Source of the DNA: Escherichia phage JS10 | Strand: one strand, 5' to 3' | DNA length: 64,000 nt | Sequence record: EU863409 | Part shown: positions 15,073 through 38,855 of the stretch, one piece after another | How positions within the stretch are numbered: the first letter of the stretch is position 1 | Layout of the letters: each line of letters begins with the position of its first letter | Translations under genes and position numbers: made by a program | Notes under the pieces: generated by a model | Told to the model about the DNA's origin: nothing | What the model saw: the letters and a program-made list of their open reading frames with translations, nothing else | Database searches by the model: none

Positions 15073-15127
15073 GATAACCTCCAGTAGTTGATAGGTCTAT
15101 AGTATCATGTCTAATGGAGATGTAAAC
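15073..15127 (-). promoter_or_regulatory. PeSL-like promoter-stem-loop cassette
   Basis: core TTGATAGGTCTATAGTATCA; -35 GTTTAC; 9-bp inverted repeat arms (one mismatch), proximal arm includes GGAGG SD. Confidence 0.55.
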
Positions 15128-15129
15128 AA

Positions 15130-15471
15130 CTAATAGAAACTTTTTTCACCGGCTTGCCCACTAAACCAGGCGGATTGTGTGTTCTCTTTCCGTTGGTGTT
15201 TAATACGAATAAGGTATTCGTTCCTGATGGCGCAGAGTTCATCTCTGAAGTCGCCTGCCAACTTAACCTGCTTACGGTCTAGATTTATTAAGGCTTGGGT
15301 CTTCGCGGCCAAGCGCAACCTCTTGAAGTCTCCTCCTTCACAACCGGTTTTATAAACCTTCTCAGCGAATTTGTGTTTAGATTCATTATCATAGTCTTCA
15401 ATAGACTGTTTCATGGCATTAGAGTATTTCAACTCTGCTTTTACAAGGTCATAACTAAATTGTTCGAACAT
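15130..15471 (-). CDS. hypothetical protein
   Basis: 113-aa ORF. Confidence 0.5.
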   Translation of the reverse strand: MFEQFSYDLVKAELKYSNAMKQSIEDYDNESKHKFAEKVYKTGCEGGDFKRLRLAAKTQALINLDRKQVKLAGDFRDELCAIRNEYLIRIKHQRKENTQSAWFSGQAGEKSFY

Positions 15472-15481
15472 AATTTCACCT

Positions 15482-16462
15482 TTATTTCAGAAGGGTAACT
15501 TCGGCGATTTCGCTCCAGTCATTTTTATCGGTGGCAATGAAGTCCGCCAGATAAAGAGCTGTACGTAATGATACGTTACGAAGACGAGATACATTGGCCT
15601 TCATCCATGCTAGAGCTTGATAAGTCTCGGCATCAGTCAGACCTCGGTTTTGCATCATATCGGTGGACAGGATAACGTCTTCAACACGAACCATAATCTC
15701 TTCGTTCGAGTGAACTCCGAGGTCTAAGTAAACTGAACGAGATACTAAAGCCTGGAGGTGTGGAGCAAGTTTAGTGCCACGTTCTAATTCACGGTCAATA
15801 TCAACGTTGGTGATGAATACGATGGTGCCTTCATATTCGAATTCTTTATCGATATTTTTATCATCGAGATAAGAACTTGAAGTGCTCCAGCACACCTTAC
15901 GTTTCTCACCGGTATCCAATGCGGCTTTCAGAAGGTTCAGGATATCCATGTCAGAGAATACATCAACATCATCAATAAGAAGAACACTATTAGGGCCGCG
16001 GTTATTCCAAAGTTGCTCGTAAAGACCGATTCCACTAATCTTTCCGTTGATTGATTTATATTCGATAGTTTCATTTTCGTGGGCATTTTGTAATGCTTTA
16101 TCCAAAGAGTATGTTTTACCAATACCTGCGGCACCAGAGATGATAAGGGAACGAATTTTACCATCAATGATTCCGTTAGTCATCATGTTCATTACTTTAA
16201 AACGTTTGTTGATGCGATGTTTCATTTCTTCAGCAGATTCAGTAACCATTGCAGGAGCTTCAGCACCTTCCATTTCAACGTCACATTTGAACACCCATAC
16301 ACCACGTTCAACACCATCAATCTGTACAAATACCTTGCCATCACCGAGGTGAGCTTCAGATTCATGAATTTTATTAGGGAACCAGGTTTTACCTGAACTC
16401 ATGAACGTACCAGAGATTTCATTACCGCGATAGATACCTTTGTTGATTTTGATAGTTAACAT
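15482..16462 (-). CDS. P-loop ATPase (Walker A GAAGIGKT, Walker B LLIDDVD)
   Basis: 326 aa from internal ATG with AAGGAG SD; N-terminal approx 100-aa domain followed by ATPase core. Confidence 0.6.
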   Translation of the reverse strand: MLTIKINKGIYRGNEISGTFMSSGKTWFPNKIHESEAHLGDGKVFVQIDGVERGVWVFKCDVEMEGAEAPAMVTESAEEMKHRINKRFKVMNMMTNGIIDGKIRSLIISGAAGIGKTYSLDKALQNAHENETIEYKSINGKISGIGLYEQLWNNRGPNSVLLIDDVDVFSDMDILNLLKAALDTGEKRKVCWSTSSSYLDDKNIDKEFEYEGTIVFITNVDIDRELERGTKLAPHLQALVSRSVYLDLGVHSNEEIMVRVEDVILSTDMMQNRGLTDAETYQALAWMKANVSRLRNVSLRTALYLADFIATDKNDWSEIAEVTLLK

Positions 16463-16526
16463 TTTATTCTCCTTCACTCAGTAGATTTGATAGGTCTATA
16501 ATAACATGTTTAAAGCAGATGTACAC
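16463..16526 (-). promoter_or_regulatory. PeSL-like cassette (variant, repeat copy 1)
   Basis: GATAGGTCTATAATAACATGTTTAAAGCAGATGTACAC; -35 GTGTAC, -10 TATTAT; palindrome AACATGTT. Confidence 0.5.
16489..16526 (-). repeat. 38-bp direct repeat (copy 1) of PeSL variant core
   Basis: GATAGGTCTATAATAACATGTTTAAAGCAGATGTACAC; second copy at 16801..16838. Confidence 0.7.
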
Positions 16527-16528
16527 AC

Positions 16529-16759
16529 TTATTTTGCAATAATTTCACAGAAGCCATCTTTATAGCGGGCCCATGTTTCACCATTTACTGTATAAAGAGC
16601 AGCTTTACGACCATTAGGCATAACAACTTGTTTACCTTTGTTTTTAGTTACAGCTTCAATAATTTCGTATTCTTCAGCACGATCAGCTTTAAAGGTATCT
16701 TCCAGAGCGATCAAGTTAGTAGTGTAAGAACCGTATTTGTAATTTTTGATAGCGTACAT
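16529..16759 (-). CDS. hypothetical protein (76 aa)
   Basis: Small ORF flanked on both sides by 38-bp direct repeats of the PeSL core. Confidence 0.5.
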   Translation of the reverse strand: MYAIKNYKYGSYTTNLIALEDTFKADRAEEYEIIEAVTKNKGKQVVMPNGRKAALYTVNGETWARYKDGFCEIIAK

Positions 16760-16838
16760 TTTTATATCTCCGTTTGGTTTAAGTTTTCAGCTCTTTAGCT
16801 GATAGGTCTATAATAACATGTTTAAAGCAGATGTACAC
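16760..16838 (-). promoter_or_regulatory. PeSL-like cassette (variant, repeat copy 2)
   Basis: Identical 38-bp core to copy 1 at 16801-16838. Confidence 0.5.
16801..16838 (-). repeat. 38-bp direct repeat (copy 2) of PeSL variant core
   Basis: Identical to 16489..16526; the two copies bracket ORF 16529..16759. Confidence 0.7.
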
Positions 16839-16850
16839 TACTTTTTTGCA

Positions 16851-16880
16851 CTAAACCCAAAAAAGGCCCGAAGGCCTTTT
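16851..16880 (-). terminator. intrinsic terminator
   Basis: GGCC-UUCG-GGCC hairpin with A/U-extended stem and U-rich tail after nucleotidyltransferase gene. Confidence 0.5.
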
Positions 16881-16881
16881 A

Positions 16882-17892
16882 TCATTTATAATACGAGTTA
16901 TGGTTTTCTAGGTAAACCTGCTCAACGAACTTGTCCCAGAACTTCATGTCCACCTTCGCAGGCATACCATTCTTAGCTGCCCAGATGGCATTGGTTTCGA
17001 CTTCATCAACTATAGCTTCGAGCTCAGCCTGTACATCTTTAAAAGCATGTAGCCCTTGTTTGATTTCAAGGATAAATGGTGCTGTTCGTAAAGGATATTG
17101 AAGGTCGCCGGTCATATAGATTTCCTTCAACTGATATCCAGCACGATAAGCATGGCTCAGAGCTTTCCAATCAATGCCTTCATTAGCTTCGGCCTTACGA
17201 GCACGTTCACCATATTCAGCATCAAGTTTATTCAGAGATTGCTTAAGCTCGATTAATGACAAAGTAGTTTGGTACTTACGTCCGAGGACAGTATAGAACG
17301 TTTGAGGACCTGTTTTCTCATGGTTATGAAATACCCATTCACAGAACTCGTTTTCAGGAAGTCGATGTTTGATATCTTCTACCTTAGTGCGACGTTGCTT
17401 AGTAGAACCATCTTCTTGATAATCAACCCACTGTTCAGGAATCTGGTTAACGATAGCCAGTACACCACGCAGAGCAGCCAGACGAGAACCCTTAACACCA
17501 TATTTAGAAGCTTGCTTACGGACGTACCCTAAATAGGCTTTCATGTTAGTTGTATAGAAACGCGAACGGTTATCTTGGATAAATTTCCATACATCAGGTA
17601 AATCAGATTTAACCACCATTTCGGGTGGAGTGTGGAGCATATCCAGAGCAACGGTTTCGCCATCAGCAGCCAGTTTAAAGAAATATTTCAGGCTGTAAAG
17701 CTCATGGTCAACATCATCTTTAGTGTTTTTGGAAGCAGTGTTATTCGTGTTCAGGTTGGTATGGTTCATTGCCGTACCTAACAGAATATCACGCGGATGT
17801 GGAACAAAGATTTCTTTAAAATCGACATCAGATTCCGGAGTACTTGTTCCATAAAGATGGCTACCGAAGTAGCCTTTCATAACTGTTCTCAT
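16882..17892 (-). CDS. Pol-beta-superfamily nucleotidyltransferase
   Basis: G-S-x10-D-V-D motif (GSHLYGTSTPESDVDF) near N-terminus; start at ATG forming ATGA overlap with upstream stop. Confidence 0.6.
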   Translation of the reverse strand: MRTVMKGYFGSHLYGTSTPESDVDFKEIFVPHPRDILLGTAMNHTNLNTNNTASKNTKDDVDHELYSLKYFFKLAADGETVALDMLHTPPEMVVKSDLPDVWKFIQDNRSRFYTTNMKAYLGYVRKQASKYGVKGSRLAALRGVLAIVNQIPEQWVDYQEDGSTKQRRTKVEDIKHRLPENEFCEWVFHNHEKTGPQTFYTVLGRKYQTTLSLIELKQSLNKLDAEYGERARKAEANEGIDWKALSHAYRAGYQLKEIYMTGDLQYPLRTAPFILEIKQGLHAFKDVQAELEAIVDEVETNAIWAAKNGMPAKVDMKFWDKFVEQVYLENHNSYYK

Positions 17893-18341
17893 TCTTTGTT
17901 CTCGAAGTGAATTACAGGACACATCTTAGATTTACGAGCTTTAATGTATTGGACGACGATATTTTCTTTAGTTTCTCGGCCTTCACGCTCAGCTTGAATA
18001 CGTTGCCATTCCTTTTCTTCTCTACGTGCATCATACCACGCGTGTAAATTCATCGCACCTAATGCCAAACCAATGGATAGAGCAATAATAAGAGCTATTG
18101 CAATCAACCCTAAAACAAACCCTAGACTCAACAGAACAGGAGTACTTAATACAAAGAAATGCTCTAATACACCAGCTCCTGCAACAGTTAATCCAAAAAG
18201 CGTACTACCTGCAACAACAGCACAAGCAAAACAAGCCCAAACCATTTTCCAGAAATAAGCACACAAAGAGTGTGGTCGAGAATGACGGTCATAAAAACGG
18301 TCGTGTAATTTAACGTGCCAAGAGTTTGAATTGATAATCAT
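17889..18341 (-). CDS. membrane protein
   Basis: 150 aa with several hydrophobic helices. Confidence 0.5.
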   Translation of the reverse strand: MIINSNSWHVKLHDRFYDRHSRPHSLCAYFWKMVWACFACAVVAGSTLFGLTVAGAGVLEHFFVLSTPVLLSLGFVLGLIAIALIIALSIGLALGAMNLHAWYDARREEKEWQRIQAEREGRETKENIVVQYIKARKSKMCPVIHFENKE

Positions 18342-18351
18342 AATATTTTCC

Positions 18352-18912
18352 TTAAGGGTTCATAGTTGGGATAACAGAGTTCAGATAAGAGACTAAAACT
18401 TTTAGCTCGTCTTTAGTAAATACCACTTCATTTTCACCGTCGTGTCTTTGGGTCAAGGATAGCAAATCACGACCCTGGTGTTGATACACGGATAATTCGG
18501 TATCATAATCCAGTTCTTCTTCATCACCTTCAAATGTTTCACTAGAACGAATCACCGCATCTTGACCTGGAACTTTCCATTCAACTTCAGGCTTGCATTC
18601 TTCCTGGAACAGTTTAAAAATACATTTAAAGAAATTACTAGAATTCCTAATGCTTAGACATTCAGTATCAGTTTCGATATTAAATCCGTCTTCATTTTTA
18701 TAAATTTGGGCCCATACATCGTCGTTAATATCAAACGATGCTCTATGGCGTCCATCAAGATACCCATCTTTATCCAAAACCTTTAAATCATAAAGTGGTT
18801 TAATATCTTGGATAGTTAGTACGATTTTATCGTCTTCTTGTGAAAGCACAATTGCATTATCAACTACTTCAGCGGTCAGTTCACCAAACAATTCAGTTGT
18901 TTCAATAATCAT
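18352..18912 (-). CDS. hypothetical acidic protein
   Basis: 186-aa ORF. Confidence 0.5.
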   Translation of the reverse strand: MIIETTELFGELTAEVVDNAIVLSQEDDKIVLTIQDIKPLYDLKVLDKDGYLDGRHRASFDINDDVWAQIYKNEDGFNIETDTECLSIRNSSNFFKCIFKLFQEECKPEVEWKVPGQDAVIRSSETFEGDEEELDYDTELSVYQHQGRDLLSLTQRHDGENEVVFTKDELKVLVSYLNSVIPTMNP

Positions 18913-18922
18913 TTTCTGTTCC

Positions 18923-19120
18923 TCAACGGTTATGTTTTAAAATACTATAAAGTTCTTCGACTTGGCTTGCATTCAGACAAATCATATCATTTTCTTGTTG
19001 GAGCGTGATTCCGCCTTTTTCTTCCCAATCTTTAACAAAGATGTCATCGTCAGACTCTTCAACATCTGCCAAAAGGACAATAATACCGTCTTCAGAATTA
19101 CCACTTGGGTCGTATAACAT
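18923..19120 (-). CDS. hypothetical acidic protein (65 aa)
   Basis: Start at internal ATG with GAGGAAA SD; 1-nt overlap with stop of upstream mini-ORF. Confidence 0.4.
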   Translation of the reverse strand: MLYDPSGNSEDGIIVLLADVEESDDDIFVKDWEEKGGITLQQENDMICLNASQVEELYSILKHNR

Positions 19121-19215
19121 TACAGTTTCCTCGCTAGCCATGAAAAGAATAAACCTATTAAAACTGGACCAATAAGCATTGTAAGCCAAGCCCAAGGTTC
19201 AAGATAGTAAATCAT
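19120..19215 (-). CDS. hydrophobic mini-ORF (31 aa)
   Basis: MIYYLEPWAWLTMLIGPVLIGLFFSWLARKL; ATGA overlap with upstream gene stop. Confidence 0.35.
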   Translation of the reverse strand: MIYYLEPWAWLTMLIGPVLIGLFFSWLARKL

Positions 19216-19469
19216 CTCATGCTCCTGTGCCAACAGTTACGTGGCTCACGTTTAAAAATTTCATCATGCATTGACTGACAACCTATACAATATATCACAC
19301 CTTTGATAGCTTGACGTCGTGCTTCAGGAATCTCTTCATCACAATCAAAACAATATTTAGCCGATTCACGTTCAACTGCTACTTGCTTACGGGCGTGTAC
19401 TATAGCGGCCTGAACGACCGCTTCCATTTCGAGCTGTTCAGCTCCGTCCTTAGCAAATCCAACAGCCAT
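19212..19469 (-). CDS. TraR/DksA-type C4 zinc-finger protein
   Basis: 85 aa with C-x2-C-x17-C-x2-C (CFDC...CIGC). Confidence 0.55.
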   Translation of the reverse strand: MAVGFAKDGAEQLEMEAVVQAAIVHARKQVAVERESAKYCFDCDEEIPEARRQAIKGVIYCIGCQSMHDEIFKREPRNCWHRSMR

Positions 19470-19651
19470 TATGCTTTCAACTCATTAAGATACTCAACCA
19501 ATGCTGCTTTAGAGTTAGTCAAATCTCTTTTACACTGCTCTATTCCAGAATATGAATAACCTTCGCAATATTCAACAGCTAGGTCATTGGAGGCGTTTTC
19601 AATATGCTGGGCGAGTTTAATAATTTTCTCAATCTGTTCGGTAGTTAACAT
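19469..19651 (-). CDS. hypothetical protein
   Basis: 60-aa ORF. Confidence 0.4.
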   Translation of the reverse strand: MLTTEQIEKIIKLAQHIENASNDLAVEYCEGYSYSGIEQCKRDLTNSKAALVEYLNELKA

Positions 19652-19655
19652 AATA

Positions 19656-19892
19656 TCACCAGTATTTGTTGATAGTAGAAATTAATTCTTGGGCCTGGGT
19701 AGTCTTCAGTTTACATCCACAACCCTTTAATGTGTCTTTAAGGAGCCATGGTTCCTTGAGCTCGTCCTTTTCTAGACGAATTCTGTATCCTCGATAATCG
19801 GCAAAGATACTTCGGTCGTCGAATATCTTAATCTCAAGGATACGACCGTTGATTTCATATTCTAATGAAACCGTAGTACTTGTAAGTTTCAT
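19656..19892 (-). CDS. hypothetical protein
   Basis: 78-aa ORF directly downstream of PeSL-like cassette. Confidence 0.5.
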   Translation of the reverse strand: MKLTSTTVSLEYEINGRILEIKIFDDRSIFADYRGYRIRLEKDELKEPWLLKDTLKGCGCKLKTTQAQELISTINKYW

Positions 19893-19949
19893 ACTGTTCT
19901 CCTCATTAGTTGATAGGTCTATAGTATCACGTTCCTAGAGGATGTAAAC
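19893..19949 (-). promoter_or_regulatory. PeSL-like promoter-stem-loop cassette
   Basis: core TTGATAGGTCTATAGTATCA; -35 GTTTAC (19944-19949); bulged inverted repeat. Confidence 0.55.
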
Positions 19950-19952
19950 ACT

Positions 19953-19984
19953 AAAACGAAAAAAGGTCCCACCGAAGTGGGACC
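19953..19984 (-). terminator. intrinsic terminator
   Basis: GGUCCCAC-UUCG-GUGGGACC hairpin followed by U6CGU4. Confidence 0.65.
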
Positions 19985-19989
19985 TTTGA

Positions 19990-20653: not shown

Positions 20654-20743
20654 ACAAAAGTCCTTTGTTATTTTATACGAATTTGCCTTTCGGCCTTAAC
20701 CGATAGCGATTACCAAAAGCTAAAGCTCTACGGTTAGTATTAC

Positions 20744-21025: not shown

Positions 21026-21032
21026 AGTACCC

Positions 21033-23556: not shown

Positions 23557-24015
23557 TTAAAGATAGATTACTTTCGTGCTGGTTTTACCTTCTAAACGTT
23601 TAGAGTTAACAAATGCCATACGACATTTTAATGAATACCCTTTATCAGGATGTTTACGATCTACGGTCATACCCAACCATAAGGTTTTATCGGTAATCTC
23701 GAGACGCAGTGGACGATACACTTTACCTGGGACAATTTCAGATTCTACGTCAGGAAGAGGCTCCTGGATTAAAAATTCATGGATTTCTTTAACATGATTG
23801 TGGAGCTTCTTGAACAAAGAGAAAACATATTTTTCGTCAATTTCACGTTGGATAGCACGGTCCAACAAGTGATTAGAGTACTTAATAAAGAAAGCTGGGA
23901 CACCGCTCTTAATGGCGGCTTTTTTGATGGACGCGTTAAGTTCACGAAATTCGGTTTCGAACTGACGACGTAATTTGTTGCGGCGGATGAATACTTCTGA
24001 ATTAATTTCTGACAT
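23557..24015 (-). CDS. regB: RegB site-specific endoribonuclease
   Basis: 152 aa resembling T4 RegB (FIRRNKLRR, LLDRAIQREIDE); downstream of canonical PeSL-like cassette. Confidence 0.8.
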   Translation of the reverse strand: MSEINSEVFIRRNKLRRQFETEFRELNASIKKAAIKSGVPAFFIKYSNHLLDRAIQREIDEKYVFSLFKKLHNHVKEIHEFLIQEPLPDVESEIVPGKVYRPLRLEITDKTLWLGMTVDRKHPDKGYSLKCRMAFVNSKRLEGKTSTKVIYL

Positions 24016-24072
24016 TTTGTAATCTCCTGTAGTTGATAGGTCTATAGTACCACGTCTACAGGAGATGTAAAC
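24016..24072 (-). promoter_or_regulatory. PeSL-like promoter-stem-loop cassette (upstream of regB)
   Basis: -35 GTTTAC, 17-bp spacer, -10 TACTAT; perfect 9-bp arms CTCCTGTAG / CTACAGGAG (24024-24032 / 24056-24064). Confidence 0.6.
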
Positions 24073-25544: not shown

Positions 25545-25844
25545 TTAGAAAGAACCAGAACCTTTAATTGTATTCTGGCGACCTTTATTTTCTAATTCAG
25601 AGTGGTCGATTTCGTATGCTTGGGCTACACCAAAGGCCTTTTTAACTTTAGCTAAAGAGCCTTTAGATGTAACAATATTAAAAGTATTACCTTTAGTAAA
25701 ATCAACCAAATCCACTTGTACGCCCTGTTTACCGAGGCTTGCTACAATAGCATCAACATATTCTTGGTCTAAGGTGCCTTGGACACCTATTTGGAATGCT
25801 TTAGGAGCTTTGGCTTCTGTAATAAATTCTTGATAGGTTTTCAT
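25545..25844 (-). CDS. internal-protein-like capsid-targeted protein
   Basis: N-terminus MKTYQEFITE (capsid targeting sequence with I-x-E protease site); 99 aa. Confidence 0.6.
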   Translation of the reverse strand: MKTYQEFITEAKAPKAFQIGVQGTLDQEYVDAIVASLGKQGVQVDLVDFTKGNTFNIVTSKGSLAKVKKAFGVAQAYEIDHSELENKGRQNTIKGSGSF

Positions 25845-25898
25845 ATTATTCCTTAAGTTGATAGAAGTATTCTATCACGGATTTAATTAAGCGTAAAT
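25845..25898 (-). promoter_or_regulatory. promoter with stem-loop over -10 (PeSL-related)
   Basis: -35 TTTACG, 17-bp spacer, -10 TAGAAT inside hairpin GATAGAA-N3-TTCTATC. Confidence 0.4.
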
Positions 25899-26303
25899 AG
25901 CCTTGCCATAGTGTTTGTACCAGGTAGGGCGTTGTGCAATTTTTTCGTCCAAACGGGCTTGTGAAATAGCGATAGAAGCTTCGTGAGGAACATAATCACC
26001 ACGGAATTCCTGAGGAATATCACTAATGTCCTGGACTGTAGTATCCTTGATATTAAAGCCACGTTTTAAACATTCGGCTATAAGCTCGATTTGACGCTTA
26101 CGTAAAAATTCAAGCTTATCATAAAAGAATGTAACGTGGCCTGTACCAAGGATAAAAGTAGGGCTGATTTTAAAATCACGAACACGTTTACCGTTAGCAA
26201 CATGCTTACGAACTGCACCGAAAACACGTGGTAATTCACGATATTCAGCCATTAAGTGTTGGTCAGCCAATTCAGATACTAAGGTAAGGTTGATACGAGT
26301 CAT
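25887..26303 (-). CDS. denV: endonuclease V (pyrimidine-dimer DNA glycosylase DenV)
   Basis: 138 aa, near-identical to T4 DenV along its length. Confidence 0.92.
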
Positions 26304-26359
26304 TTTTAATCTCCTGTAGTTGATAGGTCTATAGTATCATGCCTACAGGAGAAGTAAAC
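26304..26359 (-). promoter_or_regulatory. PeSL-like promoter-stem-loop cassette (upstream of denV)
   Basis: Same architecture and arms as regB cassette; -35 GTTTAC 26354-26359. Confidence 0.6.
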
Positions 26360-26758
26360 TTATTTGTAAGTTTTCATCCAATTCTTGAACAGAGCTGCAA
26401 CGTCTTTCTCTTTAACGTTCAATTTAACGTCCAGCATTTTGCCACCAGCGGCACGTGTCTGACGAATCTTAGCCGTACCGGTTTCGCCATTCCACTCAAC
26501 ATAATACTGCCCGGTGTTCATAGCGATACCATCGCCATAGTCTTCGTTCTTAGAAGTAGTGAATGCCAACTTCATGGTCTTAGAGACACGGGCCTGCATG
26601 CCTGTCTGCAGAGCGTTACGAACGCGAATAACCTGAGGAGTGGCCTGGGTCAGGTTCTCGTTCAGTTCTTCGGTGAACTCTTCTGATTCAAACATTGCCA
26701 AAAGTTCAGCGGGCGCCGGGATTACAGCTTCGGCGATAAATTCATTGTAAGTTTTCAT
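26360..26758 (-). CDS. internal-protein-like capsid-targeted protein (ipII position)
   Basis: N-terminus MKTYNEFIAE; 132 aa; C-terminus ends WMKTYK-stop, a remnant CTS start. Confidence 0.6.
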   Translation of the reverse strand: MKTYNEFIAEAVIPAPAELLAMFESEEFTEELNENLTQATPQVIRVRNALQTGMQARVSKTMKLAFTTSKNEDYGDGIAMNTGQYYVEWNGETGTAKIRQTRAAGGKMLDVKLNVKEKDVAALFKNWMKTYK

Positions 26759-26799
26759 ATAGGTCCTTTAAAGGTAAATGTGTTTAAGTATAGGCTTTA

Positions 26800-27396
26800 T
26801 TAATTACCACGGGCTGCATTAGCAACGGCGTAAGCGTACTGAATATTAGCGTCTTTAAACGTACCTTTAGAGGTATCTAGCTCTGCCTTAAAGCCGGCTT
26901 TAGTCATAACATCGGCAAATTCTTTACGGAAAGCCATTGTATCAAGACCTTTCCATGCTGATTTATGCTTGGCAAATTCAAGACCAGCGAAGTTGACTGC
27001 TTTAGCCAATTTATTATCAATAGTCCATTTACCTGCTTTAGGCACAAATATCGGACCTTTCTGTTTAGAGAATAGTTTTAAATTCCAGCGACGAAGGTCG
27101 CCGTCGGCTTTAACAAAAGCTGCGTCCAAGTTACTAGCAACAACATCTTGAATATGGCCAAATTTAAGCCCATCAGCTTCAATATTTAGGTCGTTACGCC
27201 AGCGAAGTCCTTCCCAGGCGAAAGCTTTAAAGTCGGAAGCTTTTGTAGCTAAATACCGTTCAATAGGAGCTGTTTTAGCGTCAAAGCCGTTTCCTGGGTT
27301 GTCAACGCCGTTTCCTCGGTAGGTCCACTCATCTTTATTAATGCCTTTGACCTTTCCTGCAGTAGCTTCGGTGATAAATTCTTTATACGTTTTCAT
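26800..27396 (-). CDS. internal-protein-like capsid-targeted protein (ipIII position)
   Basis: N-terminus MKTYKEFITE; 198 aa Lys/Ala-rich. Confidence 0.6.
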   Translation of the reverse strand: MKTYKEFITEATAGKVKGINKDEWTYRGNGVDNPGNGFDAKTAPIERYLATKASDFKAFAWEGLRWRNDLNIEADGLKFGHIQDVVASNLDAAFVKADGDLRRWNLKLFSKQKGPIFVPKAGKWTIDNKLAKAVNFAGLEFAKHKSAWKGLDTMAFRKEFADVMTKAGFKAELDTSKGTFKDANIQYAYAVANAARGN

Positions 27397-27475
27397 ACGG
27401 GTCCTTCAAATGTAAATTTAATTAGTCTGTTCAAGTAACTGTAGATATACTATCACAATTCTAGGAGATGTAAAC
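27397..27475 (-). promoter_or_regulatory. PeSL-like cassette (variant) upstream of internal-protein operon
   Basis: -35 GTTTAC (27470-27475), 17-bp spacer, -10 TAGTAT. Confidence 0.45.
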
Positions 27476-27480: not shown

Positions 27481-27969
27481 TTATCTATAAGCAGCCCAAG
27501 TACCTGTTTTAAAGGTGGCGATAACACGCTTGGCACGATTCGGGGTTTGCTTGTACCAACGAGACTGCGCCAGGTTAACTGCCGCATCGTCCCAACGTTT
27601 CTGTTGGAGCATACGTAAAGAGTTAGTGAACCCTGCCACACCTGCTTCACCCATTTGGAAGACCATATTAATCAATGCGCAACGACGAACTTCGTCCAAC
27701 ACATCATAAACCGGTTTCAATTTAGGATTGCGCATTATAGCTCTACGAGCATTTTCCACTGAACGATTAAAGAGTTGTTCAGCTTCAGCCATAGTAATAC
27801 GACCATTACAAACTCGACCCATAAGCTTATCAAGTTCAGCGCGAGCAACATCTTTAGATGGGTTCTTGGTAACTAACTGGCCAATACCAATAGTCCAATA
27901 ACCTTCGGTGTCTTTATAAAGGTTTAAATCAAGACCTTCGTCTTGACGTAACATATCAAAAATATCCAT
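27481..27969 (-). CDS. e: endolysin (T4 lysozyme, gene e)
   Basis: 162 aa; catalytic E11/D20-containing N-terminus [21 protein letters not shown]; matches T4 lysozyme. Confidence 0.92.
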
Positions 27970-27973
27970 AATT

Positions 27974-27993
27974 ACCTCCTGATTATAGGAGGT
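27974..27993 (-). promoter_or_regulatory. Shine-Dalgarno-sequestering hairpin of gene e
   Basis: Inverted repeat ACCTCCT-GATTAT-AGGAGGT; proximal arm is the AGGAGG SD. Confidence 0.55.
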
Positions 27994-28000
27994 ATTTATA
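27993..28000 (-). promoter_or_regulatory. T4-type late promoter (TATAAATA) for gene e
   Basis: Exact TATAAATA immediately 5' of a CCTCCT-N6-AGGAGG hairpin and the e start codon. Confidence 0.6.
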
Positions 28001-28450
28001 TCAAAAGAGTGAATCTAAAACCTTAAACATCGACGGGCCCATGACATATTCCCATTGCGGACGTTTAATCAAAGCGAAAGCGTCGAATTCCGGAATCGTA
28101 CGACCATCAGGGAACGTATGGTAAGCTGTACATTTGCAATTCTTGAACTGCTCGTGTTCGACAGGCACAGTATATAAGAACAGGTGTAGATTCTTATTGC
28201 TTGAATATTTGAACTCACCTAGGTCTTTCAGGAACGCAGGGTCATATGCTGTGAATCCAATCTCTTCTTCGGTTTCACGCATTGCCGCTTGAATAGGCTC
28301 TTCACCCGGTTCGACATGACCTTTAGGGATGTCCCATTTATGACGCATGTTCTCTGGATTACGAGAGCCTGTTACACGACCCATAACCAATTCTTTATCG
28401 GCGGTCATGAACAAAATACCAGCGGATAATTCTTTCGCTTTCTTACTCAT
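28001..28450 (-). CDS. nudE: Nudix hydrolase NudE
   Basis: Nudix box [22 protein letters not shown]; start at internal ATG 2 nt after upstream stop. Confidence 0.75.
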
Positions 28451-30176: not shown

Positions 30177-30242
30177 TTTATTCTCCATTTCACTCTGTTG
30201 TTTTGATAGGTCTATAGTATCACACCTATAGACCTTGTATAC
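30177..30242 (-). promoter_or_regulatory. PeSL-like promoter-stem-loop cassette (type with core-derived stem)
   Basis: -35 GTATAC, -10 TACTAT; perfect 10-bp stem AGGTCTATAG / CTATAGACCT (30208-30217 / 30226-30235). Confidence 0.55.
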
Positions 30243-31241: not shown

Positions 31242-31394
31242 TTACTTCATATTTACCCAGTTCAGATTTTTTGCTTCAATACGCGTTGCGGCTAGATTAG
31301 CAGCCTCTAGTGAAGAAAATTGAACCACTTGGGAAGTATTCTGCCTTACGCCACCTTGTGGGTGAGTAACAAAAACAATAAGAACATTATACAT
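31242..31394 (-). CDS. hypothetical small protein (50 aa)
   Basis: Unlisted ORF MYNVLIVFVTHPQGG...; GAGGAAAA SD; shares 16-nt initiation region with gene 30255..31214. Confidence 0.35.
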   Translation of the reverse strand: MYNVLIVFVTHPQGGVRQNTSQVVQFSSLEAANLAATRIEAKNLNWVNMK

Positions 31395-31415
31395 AATATT
31401 TTCCTCAGAGTAAAC

Positions 31416-32943: not shown

Positions 32944-32952
32944 AATATTTCC

Positions 32953-33234: not shown

Positions 33235-33243
33235 AGCTTTTCC

Positions 33244-34413: not shown

Positions 34414-34461
34414 AATATTCTCCTCTCCTCCAAATAGGGAGACCGAAGTCTCCCGGTAACA

Positions 34462-35055
34462 TTACTTAAGTGAATTAATGTAGTCGTCGATATCGGCAGA
34501 AGTCGTATCCATTCCAACTTGTGGGCCTTTAAACGTTTCTACACGTAGCAGGGTATCTTCAATATCAATCTTAGTCAGTGCAGCGATTTCAACCACATCA
34601 TCGGCAGTAGCAATACCAAGGGCAGCCATATTACGAGTTTCACGGATGTACTCGAGCTTAACAGCCAGTTCCTGACGAGAGTCATCAAGTTCCTTGACCT
34701 TCAGTTTAATTTCATTACGCATTTCGATATAATCGTCAGCTTTCTTACGAAGTTGAGTGGCTGTACGACGATAAAGGAGGCCGAGTTTAGCATGTACCTG
34801 AACATCGGCGCCTTCGGCAATCAGTTTACGAATTTCGCGTTCTTTAGAAGCAGCCAGTTGGTCTTTTTCATTTGCCAATGCACGAATGCGTTTTTCTTCA
34901 TTCACAGACTTAACATGAGCAGTCTGGAGTTCGGTAATTTTATCAATCAGGGTAGAAGCAGCTTTAGTATACTGGTCTTCGATTGACAGGTTCTGAGTCA
35001 TTGCGGTACCCAGTTTAGAACGGATGAACTCAACAATTTTCTTTAAAGTATTCAT
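34462..35055 (-). CDS. coiled-coil protein, possibly PspA/IM30-like
   Basis: 197 aa almost entirely heptad-like helices; start at ATG with AAGGAAA SD after a GTTTAC-N18-TATAAT promoter; homology assignment tentative. Confidence 0.5.
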
Positions 35056-35128
35056 AGTATTTCCTTCAGTCGGTTGGTATTTTGTAATCCATGAGGACAT
35101 TATACCCTGTCCTCTGAGGGTTGTAAAC
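35056..35128 (-). promoter_or_regulatory. sigma70-like early promoter with stem-loop over -10
   Basis: -35 GTTTAC (35123-35128), 18-bp spacer, -10 TATAAT (35099-35104) inside hairpin GAGGACA-N7-TGTCCTC. Confidence 0.5.
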
Positions 35129-35132
35129 ATTT

Positions 35133-35531
35133 TTATTTCATTTTGGCGAGGCAGATTTCATTGGCTTCCCATTGAGCTTGCTTAATAATAGCTTTGGATA
35201 CAGGAACCTTTTGACCATAAGTTTTTGACGTTGAGAGAACAATATATTTGTTTGCCTCATTATGCCAACCTAGTGATTTTTCACCATGACTACCTTTAAC
35301 CACAGCTGACACCTCAACAGAGCAACCACCATCAGAAATCTTGGTTTCTACAATCCATTCATTTCTCTCGGCAGCTTCAATTTCCGATCTCCTTTTTTCT
35401 TCATACATGGCGGCCCAATCAGTTTTTGCCAAGCTGAAAGTAAGAGCTTTCTCTAATTCTTTGGCAGCTTTTTGTTGTTCAGGCGTTAATGAATTGTACA
35501 ACTCTTGCATTTCTTTATCTTCGATATTCAT
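35133..35531 (-). CDS. hypothetical protein (132 aa)
   Basis: Start at ATG with GTGAAGGAG SD after PeSL-like cassette. Confidence 0.5.
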
Positions 35532-35595
35532 TATGCTCTCCTTCACTCCGTTGTTTTGATAGGTCTATAGTATCATATTCTACGAAAGAGTAAAC
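35532..35595 (-). promoter_or_regulatory. PeSL-like promoter cassette
   Basis: core TTGATAGGTCTATAGTATCA; -35 GTTTAC (35590-35595); hairpin degenerate. Confidence 0.5.
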
Positions 35596-35618
35596 ATCTT
35601 TTTTAAACTTTTAGAAAC

Positions 35619-35646
35619 AAAAAAGGCCCAACCTTTCGGAAGGGCC
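35619..35646 (-). terminator. intrinsic terminator
   Basis: GGCCC...GAAA...GGGCC hairpin plus U6; identical sequence repeated at 36242..36270. Confidence 0.55.
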
Positions 35647-35651
35647 TCGAA

Positions 35652-36206
35652 TCAGTTCTTGTAGAACCGGAATGGGTTCACGTGGAAGGCTAACATAGCT
35701 TTAGGGATTTTACGAGACAAAAGGCTCTTAAGCTTCCAGCCACAGTAAACGCGAAGGTAAAATGTGATTCCGCCGACCTTAAGATAAGGAACTGAAGCAA
35801 ATACACCCCAGGCATCATCATTCCACATCCACAACCAACCATGGTGGGCTTTATCAGGAGAACCTGATTCTACGTCAGGATTACCACGATAATGGAATTC
35901 CGAGCTACAATCACGGCCTAGTTTATGATAAGCAAAGTTATAAGCTTTATTTCGCCATAGCCAAGCTACTCTCTGGAGATAAACACCGCCAGGCATTTTC
36001 CTGATTTTAGCCCAACGTTTAATATGACCTTTATCGCCGTCAATTGGATTATCGTATGTCATCATCCAATCAAAACCATATGGCAATTTACCAGTCTTTT
36101 TATTATGAAAAGGAACCACAAAAGGCGCAAGGATAACGGCTAGAACCATAGAGATAAAATCTAGTGGGACCAACAGAATCCAACTCAAATATTTTAAAAG
36201 TTTCAT
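35652..36206 (-). CDS. membrane-anchored protein (184 aa), late-promoter driven
   Basis: N-terminal signal-anchor helix; TATAAATA 27 nt upstream; flanked by identical terminator hairpins. Confidence 0.5.
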   Translation of the reverse strand: MKLLKYLSWILLVPLDFISMVLAVILAPFVVPFHNKKTGKLPYGFDWMMTYDNPIDGDKGHIKRWAKIRKMPGGVYLQRVAWLWRNKAYNFAYHKLGRDCSSEFHYRGNPDVESGSPDKAHHGWLWMWNDDAWGVFASVPYLKVGGITFYLRVYCGWKLKSLLSRKIPKAMLAFHVNPFRFYKN

Positions 36207-36232
36207 ATTATTTCCTAAGTTAGTTTACTGTA

Positions 36233-36240
36233 TATTTATA
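36233..36240 (-). promoter_or_regulatory. T4-type late promoter (TATAAATA)
   Basis: Exact TATAAATA 27 nt upstream of gene 35652..36206, just downstream of a terminator. Confidence 0.5.
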
Positions 36241-36241
36241 C

Positions 36242-36270
36242 AAAAAAGGCCCAACCTTTCGGAAGGGCCT
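36242..36270 (-). terminator. intrinsic terminator after tRNA/sRNA cluster
   Basis: Same 29-bp hairpin plus U6 as at 35619..35646. Confidence 0.55.
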
Positions 36271-36279
36271 TTAACCTAG

Positions 36280-36439
36280 GGTAGCCTTGTCGGGGTTCCA
36301 CCTGCTAGGCAAGTGTTCTGTGCGCCGTTTCAGCTGTGAGATAAGGGACTTTAAGAGGAACTCATGTACTCCTTAAAGTCGGGTCTTATTCAGGGAACTT
36401 CAGTCCGACGACTTACCGGTAGCGACCCGGTTTCTTGTT
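36280..36439 (-). ncRNA. candidate structured small RNA adjacent to tRNA cluster
   Basis: About 160 nt non-coding, GC-rich inverted repeats (e.g. CTTTAAG...CTTAAAG), between tRNA-Arg and a terminator; no tRNA cloverleaf found; analogous position to T4 species 1/2 RNAs. Confidence 0.25.
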
Positions 36440-36515
36440 TGGTCGAGACAGTAGGGATCGAACCTACGACCTACGGTTTAGAAGACCGTTGCTCTTCCTT
36501 CTGAGCTATGCCTCG
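36440..36515 (-). tRNA. tRNA-Arg (anticodon UCU)
   Basis: 76-nt cloverleaf: anticodon stem ACGGT/ACCGT with loop CTTCTAA, T-arm GTAGG-TTCGATC-CCTAC, encoded CCA; unusual C1-G72 acceptor start. Confidence 0.65.
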
Positions 36516-36519
36516 TATT

Positions 36520-36594
36520 TGGCGGACATGCATGGATTCGAACCATGGACCAATTGATTAACAGTCAACTGCTCTACCACTGAGCTACACATCC
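36520..36594 (-). tRNA. tRNA-Asn (anticodon GUU)
   Basis: 75-nt cloverleaf: D-arm TAGCTCAGTGGTAGAGC, anticodon loop CTGTTAA, T-arm CATGG-TTCGAAT-CCATG, encoded CCA. Confidence 0.75.
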
Positions 36595-36598
36595 AAAT

Positions 36599-36672
36599 TG
36601 GTGGCCCTGGGTGGAATCGAACCACCATCCAGCGATTATGAGTCGCTCGCTTGACCGTCCAGCTACAGGGCC
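36599..36672 (-). tRNA. tRNA-Met/Ile2 (anticodon CAU)
   Basis: 74-nt cloverleaf: acceptor GGCCCTG/CAGGGCC, anticodon stem AGCGA/TCGCT with loop CTCATAA, T-arm GGTGG-TTCGATT-CCACC, encoded CCA. Confidence 0.75.
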
Positions 36673-36677
36673 TTAAT

Positions 36678-36944
36678 TTAAATTACAAATCCAGCAGGAG
36701 CATTATCATCTTTAGCCATGTGCTGAATTGTATGATAAGTCATTTCTTCAGGAGCAACCAGATAAGCCGCAGCATTAACTAGTGGAATTATTTTTGGTTT
36801 AGCGAATGTGCTATCGGCAATTGCCATAAAGGGCTCGCCGTCGGTCTCAACTTCGCCAAATTGACATTCATATGAAATAGAACAACGTTTAGTAGTTGTT
36901 GTCTTGGTTTCTGGGTCATAAAAAGCTAATTTTAATACTAACAT
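36678..36944 (-). CDS. hypothetical protein (88 aa)
   Basis: Start at ATG with GAGG SD; first gene upstream of tRNA cluster. Confidence 0.4.
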   Translation of the reverse strand: MLVLKLAFYDPETKTTTTKRCSISYECQFGEVETDGEPFMAIADSTFAKPKIIPLVNAAAYLVAPEEMTYHTIQHMAKDDNAPAGFVI

Positions 36945-37073
36945 AAACACCTCAAATAAAATTAAGTAAAGTAAGTTTGATTAATAGACCTTGTCTATTA
37001 TGAAAGGCTCTTTGAGGGAAGAACCTTTGGTAATAGAGGGTATTAATGATAGAGTAATAATATCACATAATTC

Positions 37074-37559
37074 TTAAAGCATATCAAGTGCTTTCACATC
37101 AGGGATTTTAATTTCTTCTTCAATAATATACAGCTTAACGTAAGAAATTACACGGATGAAATCACCATCATATTCACAAGCCATACCAAGGAGCTCAGTA
37201 AGGGCTTCATTCAAGTAGTATTCTTCCTCGTCGTCATTCAGCAAGGCTTCTAAGTCTTGGATACCGAGGGCCTTATCTAAAAATTCAGGGGTCAACTGGC
37301 CTGATTTTACACCCGATTCAATGTAGGCTATAACCAGATGCTTAACTACGTCCCATTCCGAATTACCACATTTATCCGGGTTGTTGCAATGCGAACCATG
37401 GAAAAGTTCTAGGATATATTTGTACTGTTGGATTTCATGTTCTTCTACGCCAAATACAGTCTGGGTTTTATAGTTATCGCCATCATTTTCCCAGGTTTCA
37501 ATTTCAATCACATAACCTTTAGGGATAGTTTGTCCGAATTTAATATTCATTGTGGCCAC
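37074..37559 (-). CDS. hypothetical acidic protein
   Basis: 161-aa ORF. Confidence 0.5.
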   Translation of the reverse strand: MATMNIKFGQTIPKGYVIEIETWENDGDNYKTQTVFGVEEHEIQQYKYILELFHGSHCNNPDKCGNSEWDVVKHLVIAYIESGVKSGQLTPEFLDKALGIQDLEALLNDDEEEYYLNEALTELLGMACEYDGDFIRVISYVKLYIIEEEIKIPDVKALDML

Positions 37560-37837
37560 ATATTAATATAATCAAGTTTAATAGAAGCAATCTTCAAAGG
37601 ATTTTTAAAGATGTCGTATTCGACCAATCCATTTTCAGTTGCAGTATAAAAAGTAAAGTTGACAGAATTATAGCGTTGGCTGTTAACTTTGAGTTTAACA
37701 TCGCTTGAACTACGGCCAATATTAACCTGTTGAACATCAAGCACAGCATCTTTGCCGTAATTTCGAATCAACAACTCGGCTGCAACCTGATCGGATTTAT
37801 AGCCATTCTCTGGATTAGTAACCTTAACGTATAACAT
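37547..37837 (-). CDS. hypothetical protein
   Basis: 96-aa ORF overlapping neighbours. Confidence 0.5.
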   Translation of the reverse strand: MLYVKVTNPENGYKSDQVAAELLIRNYGKDAVLDVQQVNIGRSSSDVKLKVNSQRYNSVNFTFYTATENGLVEYDIFKNPLKIASIKLDYINMWPQ

Positions 37838-38239
37838 TTAACCCTCGTCTACAATAGTGTGGGTATTGGCATTAACAATCTGCCACCAGCCAAAACGATT
37901 GGAACCGTAAAGAGGTTTATTCTCGTTTTCTTTAATGATATCGCGCAGTTCATCTTCAGAGAAGGCTTTAGCGATTAAATCAGTATACCCACCACGTGGA
38001 TAATAATTATCACCCGCAAACAAAAGGAAATTTACCTTTCCGGAAGGAACATATGCTTCCTTAGGATACTTGTTTCCTGCGTGGTCGACAACTTCAATAT
38101 AACGGTAAGGAATATCAGTTCTTTCAACCCATTGCCATGCTGCTGCAGGGGATTCAAAAGCATCTACACCTAAACGGTTATCTTCATCTTTAGACGGATT
38201 ATTTTCGTAATCCGCATATACATAATATTCAACGTTCAT
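37838..38239 (-). CDS. hypothetical protein
   Basis: 133-aa ORF. Confidence 0.5.
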   Translation of the reverse strand: MNVEYYVYADYENNPSKDEDNRLGVDAFESPAAAWQWVERTDIPYRYIEVVDHAGNKYPKEAYVPSGKVNFLLFAGDNYYPRGGYTDLIAKAFSEDELRDIIKENENKPLYGSNRFGWWQIVNANTHTIVDEG

Positions 38240-38424
38240 TATTCACCTTTAGAGATTTTATCCATAACAAAAGAGATTGAACCAATTAAGAATGCCACTA
38301 CTAAAGAGATTGTATTCTCGGAAGTTGTAAGCAAATCCAACATGAATCCTGCAAACATACTAAAGCCAAAAGCAGTAACGGCGGCCAGTGCAGTAACATT
38401 TCTAATTAATTCACAACGTTTCAT
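38239..38424 (-). CDS. small membrane protein (61 aa)
   Basis: Start at ATG with GGAGAATAAA SD after PeSL-like cassette; two hydrophobic helices. Confidence 0.45.
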   Translation of the reverse strand: MKRCELIRNVTALAAVTAFGFSMFAGFMLDLLTTSENTISLVVAFLIGSISFVMDKISKGE

Positions 38425-38490
38425 TTTATTCTCCAATCACTCATTTGTTTTGATAGGGCTATAGTATCATCACTAAAGCCCGTTGTAAAC
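38425..38490 (-). promoter_or_regulatory. PeSL-like promoter-stem-loop cassette (covarying stem)
   Basis: core GATAGGGCTATAGTATCA with stem GGGCTATAG / CTAAAGCCC; -35 GTTTAC. Confidence 0.55.
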
Positions 38491-38492
38491 AC

Positions 38493-38786
38493 TTATTTTG
38501 TAATTTCTTTGATTTTAGAAACTACTTTATCTTTGGTAAGACCGGAAAAAGTCTTATATTTTGTAAAGTGGATATCATCACCAAGATTAATATAATATTT
38601 CTTTTTAACCGTATTGAATGCTATACTAACAGGTTTACCATTTACTGTAATAGTAATTTGCTGAGCCTTATCAACATCACCTGAGCCAAAGGCTCTTTTA
38701 ATATCGCTACTAATATCGGCCATAGCCGCTTTGTTAATGGAATACAAATCTGTCGATTCTTTGATAAATTCTTGATAAGTTTTCAT
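38493..38786 (-). CDS. internal-protein-like capsid-targeted protein
   Basis: N-terminus MKTYQEFIKE; 97 aa; downstream of canonical PeSL-like cassette. Confidence 0.6.
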   Translation of the reverse strand: MKTYQEFIKESTDLYSINKAAMADISSDIKRAFGSGDVDKAQQITITVNGKPVSIAFNTVKKKYYINLGDDIHFTKYKTFSGLTKDKVVSKIKEITK

Positions 38787-38855
38787 TTTTTTGTTTCCGT
38801 TAGGTTGGGTTTGTTTTGATAGGTCTATAGTATCATGCCTATAGACCTTGTAAAC
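38787..38855 (-). promoter_or_regulatory. PeSL-like promoter-stem-loop cassette
   Basis: -35 GTTTAC (38850-38855), 17-bp spacer, -10 TACTAT; perfect 10-bp stem 38821-38830 / 38839-38848. Confidence 0.6.

Follow-up and report, generated by a model that had tools for sequence, protein, structure and literature searches.

The stretch of Escherichia phage JS10 considered here (sequence record EU863409; 64,000 nucleotides, called the window below) contains a family of ten elements that share a near-invariant 20-nt core and stand directly upstream of minus-strand genes. We think it probable that these elements are immediate-early expression cassettes of the T-even type that correspond, within the JS98 group, to the promoter-early-stem-loop (PeSL) cassettes, and that they have both regulatory and recombination roles. 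The window belongs to a JS98-like T4-type coliphage of the genus Dhakavirus, its top matches being MN04 and UP19 (both 96%) and JS98 (96.8% where the two share sequence). Homology to relatives with annotation shows that its part from 12 to 40 kb corresponds to the T4 segment nrdC–tk–vs–regB–denV–ipIII–e–tRNA–57B–1–3, a classical hyperplastic region. All ten core cassettes are situated within this nrdC-57B region, upstream of small open reading frames (ORFs) or accessory genes, that is, where PeSL cassettes are found.

The core, TTGATAGGTCTATAGTATCA on the plus strand, has ten matches in the window at three or fewer mismatches, six of them exact (positions 15088, 16487, 16799, 19910, 24033, 26320, 30203, 35556, 38450 and 38816, by which the copies are named below). 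The expected number is 0.02, and none of 100 dinucleotide-preserving shuffles reached ten. The layout on the minus strand is the same in all ten copies: an A-rich, UP-like tract, the -35 box, a spacer ending in TG-N, the -10 box (of the extended type by virtue of this TG-N), AGACCTATCA, the leader, the Shine–Dalgarno sequence (SD) and ATG. The -35 box is GTTTAC in six copies, GTGTAC in two, GTATAC in one and TTTACA, with 18-nt spacing, in one; the spacer is otherwise 17 nt long, and the -10 box is TACTAT in eight copies and TATTAT in two. The leader occupies 20–45 nt between AGACCTATCA and the SD or ATG, and the whole unit 55–80 bp. The core (TGATACTATAGACCTATCAA) covers positions -15 to +5, with AGACCT-ATCAA as the discriminator and start region, and exact identity between copies spans 17–39 nt. 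Over the same positions it forms an imperfect palindrome, TGATA-CTATAGACC-TATCA, and it also contains the palindrome CTATAG; CTATCA(A/G) at the start site is common to partial variants and even to T4 regB.

The original prediction had listed at least ten copies, three variants and four core-less promoters, placed upstream of accessory genes. These claims agree with our data: the core occurs ten times, always facing a minus-strand gene and directly 5' of its ATG; each of the listed starts, from 15073 to 38787, is the base adjoining the ATG of the downstream gene; the variants (8123, 25845, 27397) and the core-less promoters (6990, 10262, 12400, 35056) are all present; and the genes downstream include those of RegB and DenV, identified by Pfam, and an internal-protein-like gene, identified by homology.

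The early promoter consensus of T4 comprises an A-rich stretch at -40 to -44, GTTTAC at -36 to -31, TGn, TAnnnT at -12 to -7 and C at -3 to -1 (PMC1524935, PMC2988021). The elements agree with it in the place of GTTTAC, in the A-rich stretch and in TGn next to the -10 box; they are T-even-type early promoters with their leaders, and they are found 5' of orthologs of T4 early genes. In T4 numbering, the predicted +1 is the A situated 7 nt after the -10 box. A perfect GTTTAC followed by a spacer of 16–18 nt and TAnnnT occurs at 16 sites on the minus strand of the window and nowhere on the plus strand. Two other descriptions of the core were ruled out. It is not a MotA box or a late promoter, as there is no TGCTT at -30 and no TATAAATA; nor is the element similar to miniature inverted-repeat mobile elements, since it has no terminal repeats or target duplications, and its orientation and distance to the ATG are fixed.

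The denV copy ties the family to T4. It is the same element as the early promoter between ipII and denV in that phage (GTTTACATCTCCTGTAGGTATGATACTATAGACCTATCAACTACAGGAGA in T4), 47 of 50 nt being identical, and its core is unchanged between T4 and the JS98-like phages although the flanks differ. The T4 GenBank and RefSeq records have no promoter annotated around denV. The number of core copies per genome, as places found by blastn, is 16–17 in Dhakavirus, 8–10 in the RB69-like Mosigvirus and one, the denV promoter, in T4, while the SP18-type Gaprivervirus has almost none. An exact-pattern scan of IMG/VR yielded 78 loci, which together with six relatives gave 135 distinct variants, used below for the analysis of pairing and mosaicism.

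For the analysis of secondary structure, the stretch from the -35 box to the ATG was folded as RNA, and its minimum free energy (MFE) was compared with that of shuffled sequences (z-scores below). Four copies, 24033, 26320, 30203 and 38816, fold far better than the shuffles (z from -3.1 to -5.7), 15088 and 38450 are moderate (z about -2), 19910 is weak, and 16487, 16799 and 35556 have no significant hairpin. Hence the earlier claim that an inverted repeat places the -10 box in a hairpin in each copy stands for six clear cases and one weak case, but not for the remaining three. The hairpins are of two classes.

In class A, the spacer (e.g. AUCUCCUGUAG) pairs with the leader (CUACAGGAGAU) including the SD, and a small inner helix, UGAUA/UAUCA, lies inside the core. 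This class comprises 15088, 24033, 26320, weakly 19910, and the variant cassette at 8123. The 15088 cassette (15073..15127, minus strand, as are all elements described here) would drive the nrdC.8 homolog (14548-15072); its spacer AUCUCCAUUAG pairs with CUACUGGAGGU, which contains the SD (MFE -12.1, z -1.85). The regB gene (23557-24015) is preceded by the cassette 24016..24072, whose arms are AUCUCCUGUAG and CUACAGGAGAU (MFE -18.3, z -3.84), and denV (25887-26303) by the cassette 26304..26359, the ortholog of the T4 denV early promoter (MFE -18.1, z -4.62). The weak member, 19893..19949, upstream of a 78-aa ORF (19656-19892), has a CCUC/GAGG stem and the inner UGAUA/UAUCA helix (z -0.21); an intrinsic terminator, called by the terminator scan at 19962-19987, is just upstream. 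The variant 8123..8180 (TATAGT, partial core CCTATCAAC) has a strong class A hairpin occluding the SD (MFE -18.2, z -5.02).

In class B, a helix ending at -1 is formed by the spacer (AGGUCUAUAG) with the -10 box and the discriminator (CUAUAGACCU). These sequences are those of the 30203 cassette (30177..30242), situated upstream of a 70-aa ORF (MFE -15.4, z -3.13). In the 38450 cassette (38425..38490), upstream of the trna.4 homolog, the core has AGCCCU and the spacer the compensating GGGCU (MFE -13.9, z -2.04). The third member, 38816 (38787..38855), would drive an internal-protein-like ORF (38493-38786) with the conserved capsid-targeting N-terminus (MFE -17.3, z -5.74).

Of the three cassettes where folding is not significant, two have the boxes GTGTAC and TATTAT: 16487 (16463..16526, z +0.75), predicted to drive the nrdC.10 homolog, and 16799 (16760..16838), predicted to drive a 76-aa ORF (16529-16759), with an intrinsic terminator found by the scan just upstream (16861-16880). 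The third, 35556 (35532..35595, z +0.28), is upstream of a 132-aa ORF (35133-35531), and a terminator-like hairpin with a T-run, recognised by eye, is just upstream of it (35617-35647).

The pairing itself is conserved while the sequences that form it change. Class A stems occur among copies and phages as CUGUAG/CUACAG, CUCUAG/CUAGAG (RB69 regB), CAGUAG/CUACUG, CAUUAG/CUAAUG and CCAAG/CUUGG. The regB cassette of the window has the hairpin architecture of the T4 and RB69 regB promoters with other stem sequences, the T4 regB stem being a wholly different one of class A type (15 bp, -23.1 kcal/mol, z -4.4), and T4 ipII has an equivalent hairpin with a 14-bp stem (z -5.4). Class B arms co-vary as GGGCU/AGCCC, AGGCU/AGCCU and GAUAGGGUA/UACCCUAUC, and a UAUUAU -10 box is accompanied by the matching GAUAA in the spacer. 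In class A, compensatory changes were observed in 6 out of 13 pairs (RNAalifold). In the class B alignment of 19 sequences, 85% of cells pair, as against 25–43% with a slid partner, and the covariation score exceeds those of all 500 shuffles. Finally, with one representative for each of the 57 spacer-leader combinations, the complementarity between the spacer and leader of the same element is -5.99 kcal/mol, whereas the permuted value is -5.16 (standard deviation 0.23), and none of 2000 permutations was as low. The existence of several distinct stem versions is a stronger argument for pairing than these statistics.

The predicted start site falls inside the loop of class A hairpins and immediately 3' of the class B helix. 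As it thus lies within or after the hairpin, a transcript from the cassette's own promoter would lack the 5' arm, and only read-through RNA could fold. A rival explanation is that the stem-loops are terminators or attenuators of upstream transcription, the role assigned to PeSL stem-loops in RB49 and phi1, and that the cassette is a terminator-promoter composite isolating each gene. One PeSL stem-loop of RB49 lowered the expression of a downstream lacZ to about the same extent as rrnB T1 did (Arbiol 2010, PMC2839356), in the commonest PeSL subclasses the stem-loop is situated between the -35 box and the -10 box or overlaps the latter, and the class B hairpins, at -14 to -17 kcal/mol, have a high stability and are positioned exactly between genes. 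However, no U-tract comes after any of the cassette hairpins, the sequence that follows them being AUCAAAACAA or UUAAAAAUG, and the terminator scan called none of them, so the sequence does not suggest a terminator, and we disfavour the intrinsic-terminator description. Moreover, where termination is evidently wanted, canonical terminators are provided separately, just 5' of the cassettes, namely the three mentioned above. Further, the 3' arm of class A is the SD, and covariation retains its pairing, of which a terminator has no need. Overall, we consider this explanation rather unlikely, though less so than the two discussed below.

The terminator-like hairpin upstream of 35556 has a second copy. 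The 31-nt stretches 35617-35647 and 36240-36270 (AGGCCCTTCCGAAAGGTTGGGCCTTTTTTGT on the minus strand, each a hairpin with a T-run) are 100% identical and bracket a 184-aa ORF (35652-36206), forming a second kind of direct repeat that flanks a single gene. The stem has an internal mismatch, which is why the terminator scan missed the pair.

The leaders of the cassettes are unusual in their translation starts. A GGAG SD precedes nine of the ten cassette genes and 8 of the remaining 76 genes in the segment from 5 to 40.6 kb (Fisher p = 5e-7), the sole cassette without it being 38787-38855. The consensus of the site recognised by RegB with S1 is GG*AGRAYARAA (Durand et al. 2006, PMC1702504; PMC3014915). 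As GGAGRAYARAA, it is matched at 11 of 11 positions in three leaders, those of 16463 (GGAGAATAAAA), 30177 and 38425, and at 10 of 11 in two more, but in none of the 76 other genes. RegB is encoded by the phage, and regB itself is behind one of the core cassettes. The cassette thus joins a predicted strong early promoter to an mRNA that RegB probably cleaves and inactivates. On the other hand, the T4 ortholog of one cassette gene, denV, is RegB-resistant in vivo, owing to its 3' context (PMC1702504). The terminase preference of IME08, TTGGA|G (PMC3105952), is unrelated to these sites: TTGGAG is present in one copy in the window, and the paper reports no link to promoters.

The SD of class A cassettes has an unpaired probability of 0.00 in the read-through RNA and 0.26–0.30 in the own transcript (0.28 for 15088), the latter value being 0.78 for the 8123 variant. 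The SD is held within the helix in 15088, 24033, 26320 and the 8123 variant.

The cassettes also coincide with the boundaries of indels and replacements. We compared the 10–42 kb part of the window with its counterparts in JS98, MN04, MX01, IME08, ABTNLsp5 and SP18. Each of the ten cassette junctions marks an end of homology in one or more of these six relatives, compared to 27 of the 52 junctions that have no promoter cassette (p = 0.004); when only junctions of at least 30 nt are retained, the numbers are ten of ten and 7 of 13 (p = 0.019). The elements make up 3.4% of the region, yet they contain 25 of the 142 ends of high-scoring segment pairs.

The clearest example is the 76-aa ORF (ORF76, 16529-16759), which is bracketed by two cassettes, the one at 16463 downstream and the one at 16760 upstream, containing an exact direct repeat of 39 nt. 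The 312-bp cassette-ORF76 unit is missing in MX01 and IME08, which have a single hybrid cassette instead: its upstream flank resembles the upstream copy of the window, and its leader resembles the downstream copy. By its sequence, this hybrid is the expected product of a crossover in the core. At the same slot MN04 has a third allele, a 756-nt gene on the opposite strand (positions 4566-5321 of the MN04 region, matching 16508-16889 of the window) that replaces the whole cassette-ORF76-cassette segment. The internal-protein-like gene 38493-38786 is also bracketed by cassettes and is replaced in relatives. The 35556 cassette is a breakpoint in five relatives, JS98 and MN04 having about 1 kb extra there, and the 19910 cassette is a breakpoint in IME08 and SP18. 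The 135 variants combine 30 types of spacer with 28 types of leader in 57 different ways and yield ten four-gamete quartets, which demonstrates that upstream and downstream halves have been reassorted around the invariant core. The positions agree with published observations: crossovers in the RB49 mini-circles occur between the -10 box and the SD or ATG (PMC2839356), and T4 recombines at microhomologies of 6–10 bp (PMC9391042).

Another explanation of the same facts is that one strong promoter gave rise to the family by common descent and copy-paste, that the core and inverted repeats are remnants of this history and have no function besides that of a promoter, and that the link to indels follows solely from the long intergenic spacers in which the cassettes lie. 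The core-less early promoters of the window, which carry other sequences after the -10 box, the three or four copies without a hairpin and the breakpoints at about a half of the non-cassette junctions are all consistent with this. Against it, spacer and leader vary freely while compensatory changes keep their complementarity, in several independent stems and in three genera, the denV core is unchanged between T4 and the JS98-like phages despite the differing flanks, GGAG and the RegB consensus are strongly enriched, and the ends of indels fall inside the core rather than just in the spacer. Hence we find this explanation improbable.

The favoured reading, that is, immediate-early cassettes with regulatory and recombination roles, may be formulated as follows. 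Host sigma-70 RNA polymerase would start about 7 nt past the -10 box, and this start would yield an early burst of mRNA from which the one accessory gene, or the short operon, behind the cassette is expressed. Through its GGAG(AAUAAAA) SD, this mRNA would become a substrate of the RegB endoribonuclease, leading to shut-off. On read-through RNA, the class A hairpin would hide the ribosome-binding and RegB site, so that each class A gene would be translated from own-promoter transcripts only; the folding models make such occlusion the most likely role of class A. For class B, the most likely role would be to attenuate upstream transcription, to make the polymerase pause or to stabilise the 3' end of the upstream RNA. 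As the comparison of relatives shows, different upstream and downstream halves are joined at the invariant core, a preferred crossover point, and whole cassette-gene units have been gained or lost exactly there.

Several observations weigh against this reading. The start site, promoter strength and early timing are deduced from the T4 consensus only. Since three of the ten copies lack a significant hairpin and that of 19910 is weak, the hairpin is not obligatory, and since class B is situated away from the SD, a single mechanism cannot cover both classes. Even in class A, the predicted SD accessibility of the own transcript is just 0.26–0.30, so the modelled contrast with the read-through RNA seems real but not all-or-none. 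Many of the 135 variants are orthologs, and thus the covariation and permutation statistics overstate independence. The 27 non-cassette junctions that are breakpoints, about a half of the total, mean that the cassettes are not the sole exchange points; besides, cassette junctions are longer intergenic spacers, and the enrichment taking this into account is the one with p = 0.019. Lastly, the presence of core-less early promoters in the same window leaves the invariance of AGACCTATCAA unexplained by promoter function. Neither hairpin class fully accounts for it; possible causes are a constraint on the start region, ongoing exchange between copies, or a bound factor.

The last of these leads to one more candidate explanation, namely, that the core is the recognition site of a phage-encoded factor, either an agent shutting off early promoters or a nuclease starting recombination, with the hairpins tuning access to it. 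The conservation of the core exceeds the needs of recognition by RNA polymerase or of either hairpin class, the core contains the TGATA/TATCA inverted repeat and the CTATAG palindrome, the mechanism of early-promoter shut-off in T4 is incompletely understood (PMC3014915), and a protein targeting PeSL stem-loops has been the subject of speculation (Arbiol 2010, PMC2839356). At that, no candidate core-binding protein was identified, and T4, where the shut-off is best documented, has one copy of the core and the SP18-type phages almost none, so the core is no general shut-off operator. Moreover, the variant cores AGCCCT, AGCCTT, TTACCC and ACAACT persist with compensating spacers, suggesting pairing rather than read-out by a protein. 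This makes a dedicated recognition site very improbable, the least probable of the explanations considered.

Besides the ten copies, the window contains related elements, all on the minus strand. The degenerate variant 25845..25898 (ATTTAC/TAGAAT, CTATCAAC) is 5' of an internal head protein gene. The variant 27397..27475, 5' of ipIII, has kept the 5' arm CUCCUAGAAUUGUGA of the T4 ipII-type hairpin and lost the 3' arm (z +0.69). The early promoter 12400..12457, 5' of the nrdC.4 homolog, has TATAAT and a partial core (TTATCAACTAC). Core-less early promoters of the GTTTAC-N18-TATAAT type are found at 6990..7059 and 35056..35128; the sequences after their -10 boxes are related, and the latter has a short GAGGAC/GUCCUC inverted repeat around the -10 box. 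Promoter-like sites of the same type are situated at 10262..10331 and at 31386..31415, the latter absent from the original prediction. The -10 box of the 31386..31415 site coincides with codons 2–3 of a 50-aa ORF (31242-31394); this ORF may be spurious, or else transcription would start within it and serve the 319-aa gene that follows. Another repeat, unrelated to the core family, is formed by the stretches 6973-7004 and 14468-14499 (ACTGAGGAAATTATTATGTCACAAGCAATTAA on the minus strand): these 32 nt, covering the SD and the first codons, are 97% identical in genes 7.5 kb apart and are a shared module of leader and N-terminus.

The ten genes behind the core cassettes are nrdC.8, nrdC.10, the 76-aa and 78-aa ORFs, regB, denV, the 70-aa and 132-aa ORFs, trna.4 and the internal-protein-like gene. 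The identities of RegB (PF10715, 1.6e-69) and DenV (PF03013) are backed by Pfam, and the other genes were named by homology to annotated JS98 and MN04. The nrdC.10 homolog (15482-16462, 326 aa) has no Pfam matches at the curated cut-off; weak sub-threshold matches are to an AAA/STAND-type NTPase (residues about 100-208) and a helix-turn-helix domain (244-300), which makes the protein a possible NTPase with a DNA-binding tail.

A conserved 5' end is common to five minus-strand genes (25808-25859, 26722-26773, 27360-27411, 38750-38801 and 39040-39091). Their translated N-termini are of the MKTYQEFI type, the capsid-targeting sequence of T-even internal proteins, and hence the window has five genes of the internal-protein type, in two clusters, each adjoining promoter cassettes. 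The segment 32290-33534 contains five small tandem genes (65–96 aa) with a repeated 48-nt junction formed by the gene end, SD and start; there are no promoter cassettes between these genes, and by sequence they look like a tandemly amplified paralog family with translational coupling. A cluster of three tRNA genes is located at 36443-36672 on the minus strand (Rfam tRNA, 63–73 bits), as in JS98 (Arg, Asn, Met), and homology to relatives ends on either side of it. These three tRNAs are all that the Rfam scan of the whole window yielded, and it found no known RNA family at the cassettes.

The analysis extends the PeSL idea of cassettes as both regulatory units and crossover points to the JS98 group of therapeutic coliphages and ties the element directly to the well-studied T4 promoters of denV and regB. 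The family consensus may be used to locate early transcription units and likely recombination joints in engineering and annotation. What goes beyond the published description is a proposed design in which a strong early promoter lies inside a hairpin masking the ribosome-binding and RegB site on read-through RNA and is joined to a RegB-sensitive SD. If true, an accessory gene would be expressed in a context-independent burst, as a freely portable cassette needs, and this would explain how cassettes move between genomes without disturbing their neighbours. In the literature searched, a scope that excludes older T4 papers and the JS98 genome paper, we found no description of the 20-nt core subfamily or of its expansion in JS98-like and RB69-like phages, nor of the covarying hairpin classes, the SD occlusion by the promoter spacer and the built-in RegB consensus; the hairpins of T4 denV and regB may possibly have been described earlier as single instances.

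The closest known systems are the PeSL cassettes, described for RB49/phi1 (Arbiol 2010, PMC2839356) and for PST/T4 and nt-1/KVP40 (Comeau 2014, PMC4122927). They have in common with the cassettes of the window the AT-rich tract, early promoter, SD and ATG and, for part of the copies in the window, the stem-loop; both are located in hyperplastic regions before ORFans and accessory genes, at indels and replacements between close relatives, with crossovers between the -10 box and the SD or ATG. In the window, the sigma-70-type promoter with the AT-rich tract, and with the SD and ATG at the 3' end, is present in ten of ten copies, and the stem-loop in six clearly and in one weakly, while 16799, 19910 and 35556 have a separate terminator hairpin just upstream; indels and crossovers at the cassettes are demonstrated by the junction counts, the ORF76 unit and the mosaic halves. 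The differences are in the -35 box, which is GTTTAC, GTGTAC or GTATAC and not TTGACA as in RB49, in the stems, which are AU-rich or contain the SD and are not of the GGGG...CCCC type, in the host genus, Dhakavirus, in the 20-nt core invariant across copies, and in the lack of a U-tract after the hairpins. The PST/T4 PeSL cassettes (TTTACW-N17-TAYWAT) have stem-loops just upstream of the promoter, and those of the window have them over it. That the 3' arm of class A is the SD has no parallel discussed in the PeSL papers, the word "translation" being absent from the main text of PMC2839356, and JS98 is mentioned there in passing, as having "PeSL-like sequences" near gene 43. Thus the assignment to the RB49-group cassettes in the original prediction should be corrected, the genome being JS98-like and neither the -35 box nor the stems having the RB49 sequence, whereas the PeSL interpretation is retained as regards the repeated early-promoter cassettes, many of which have a stem-loop over the -10 box, the hyperplastic region and the indel boundaries, but not the RB49 sequence family or a terminator bearing a U-tract. 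With these amendments, the family is real and functional-looking, consisting of T-even-type PeSL-like early-promoter cassettes that had been correctly delimited; the hairpin classes, the SD occlusion and the RegB-type GGAG SD are additions.

For T4 itself, Repoila et al. 1994 (as cited in PMC2839356) noted early promoters around the genes for internal proteins. The early promoters of T4 denV, regB and the internal-protein genes have the same A tract, GTTTAC, TGn and TAnnnT, and the T4 regB and ipII hairpins are equivalent to those described here; the core version is single-copy in T4 and has multiplied in the JS98-like (16–17 sites) and RB69-like (8–10) phages. As for RegB (Durand et al. 2006, PMC1702504), the sites matching its consensus in the window are all SDs of early-type genes; they are recognised by sequence match, as intergenic GGAG followed by RAYARAA at the translation start, three being full and two at 10 of 11 positions.

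The mechanism proposed for class A resembles a control established for T4 e, soc, 49 and I-TevI (PMC3014915), genes whose SD is occluded by a hairpin with a late promoter inside it. In the window, this control of gene e seems to be conserved: the hairpin UACCUCC-UAUAAUCA-GGAGGUA is found at 27967-28012 on the minus strand, with the late promoter TATAAATA abutting its 5' arm (MFE -13.8, z -4.3). Both in these genes and in class A the 5' arm is upstream of the start and the 3' arm covers the SD, and long transcripts are predicted to be untranslatable, those from the gene's own promoter translatable. However, the promoter inside the class A hairpin is an early sigma-70 promoter and not a late gp55 one (TATAAATA), hence the resemblance is one of mechanism rather than membership. 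While the hairpins of the e type separate early transcripts from late ones, those of class A would separate own transcripts from read-through ones.

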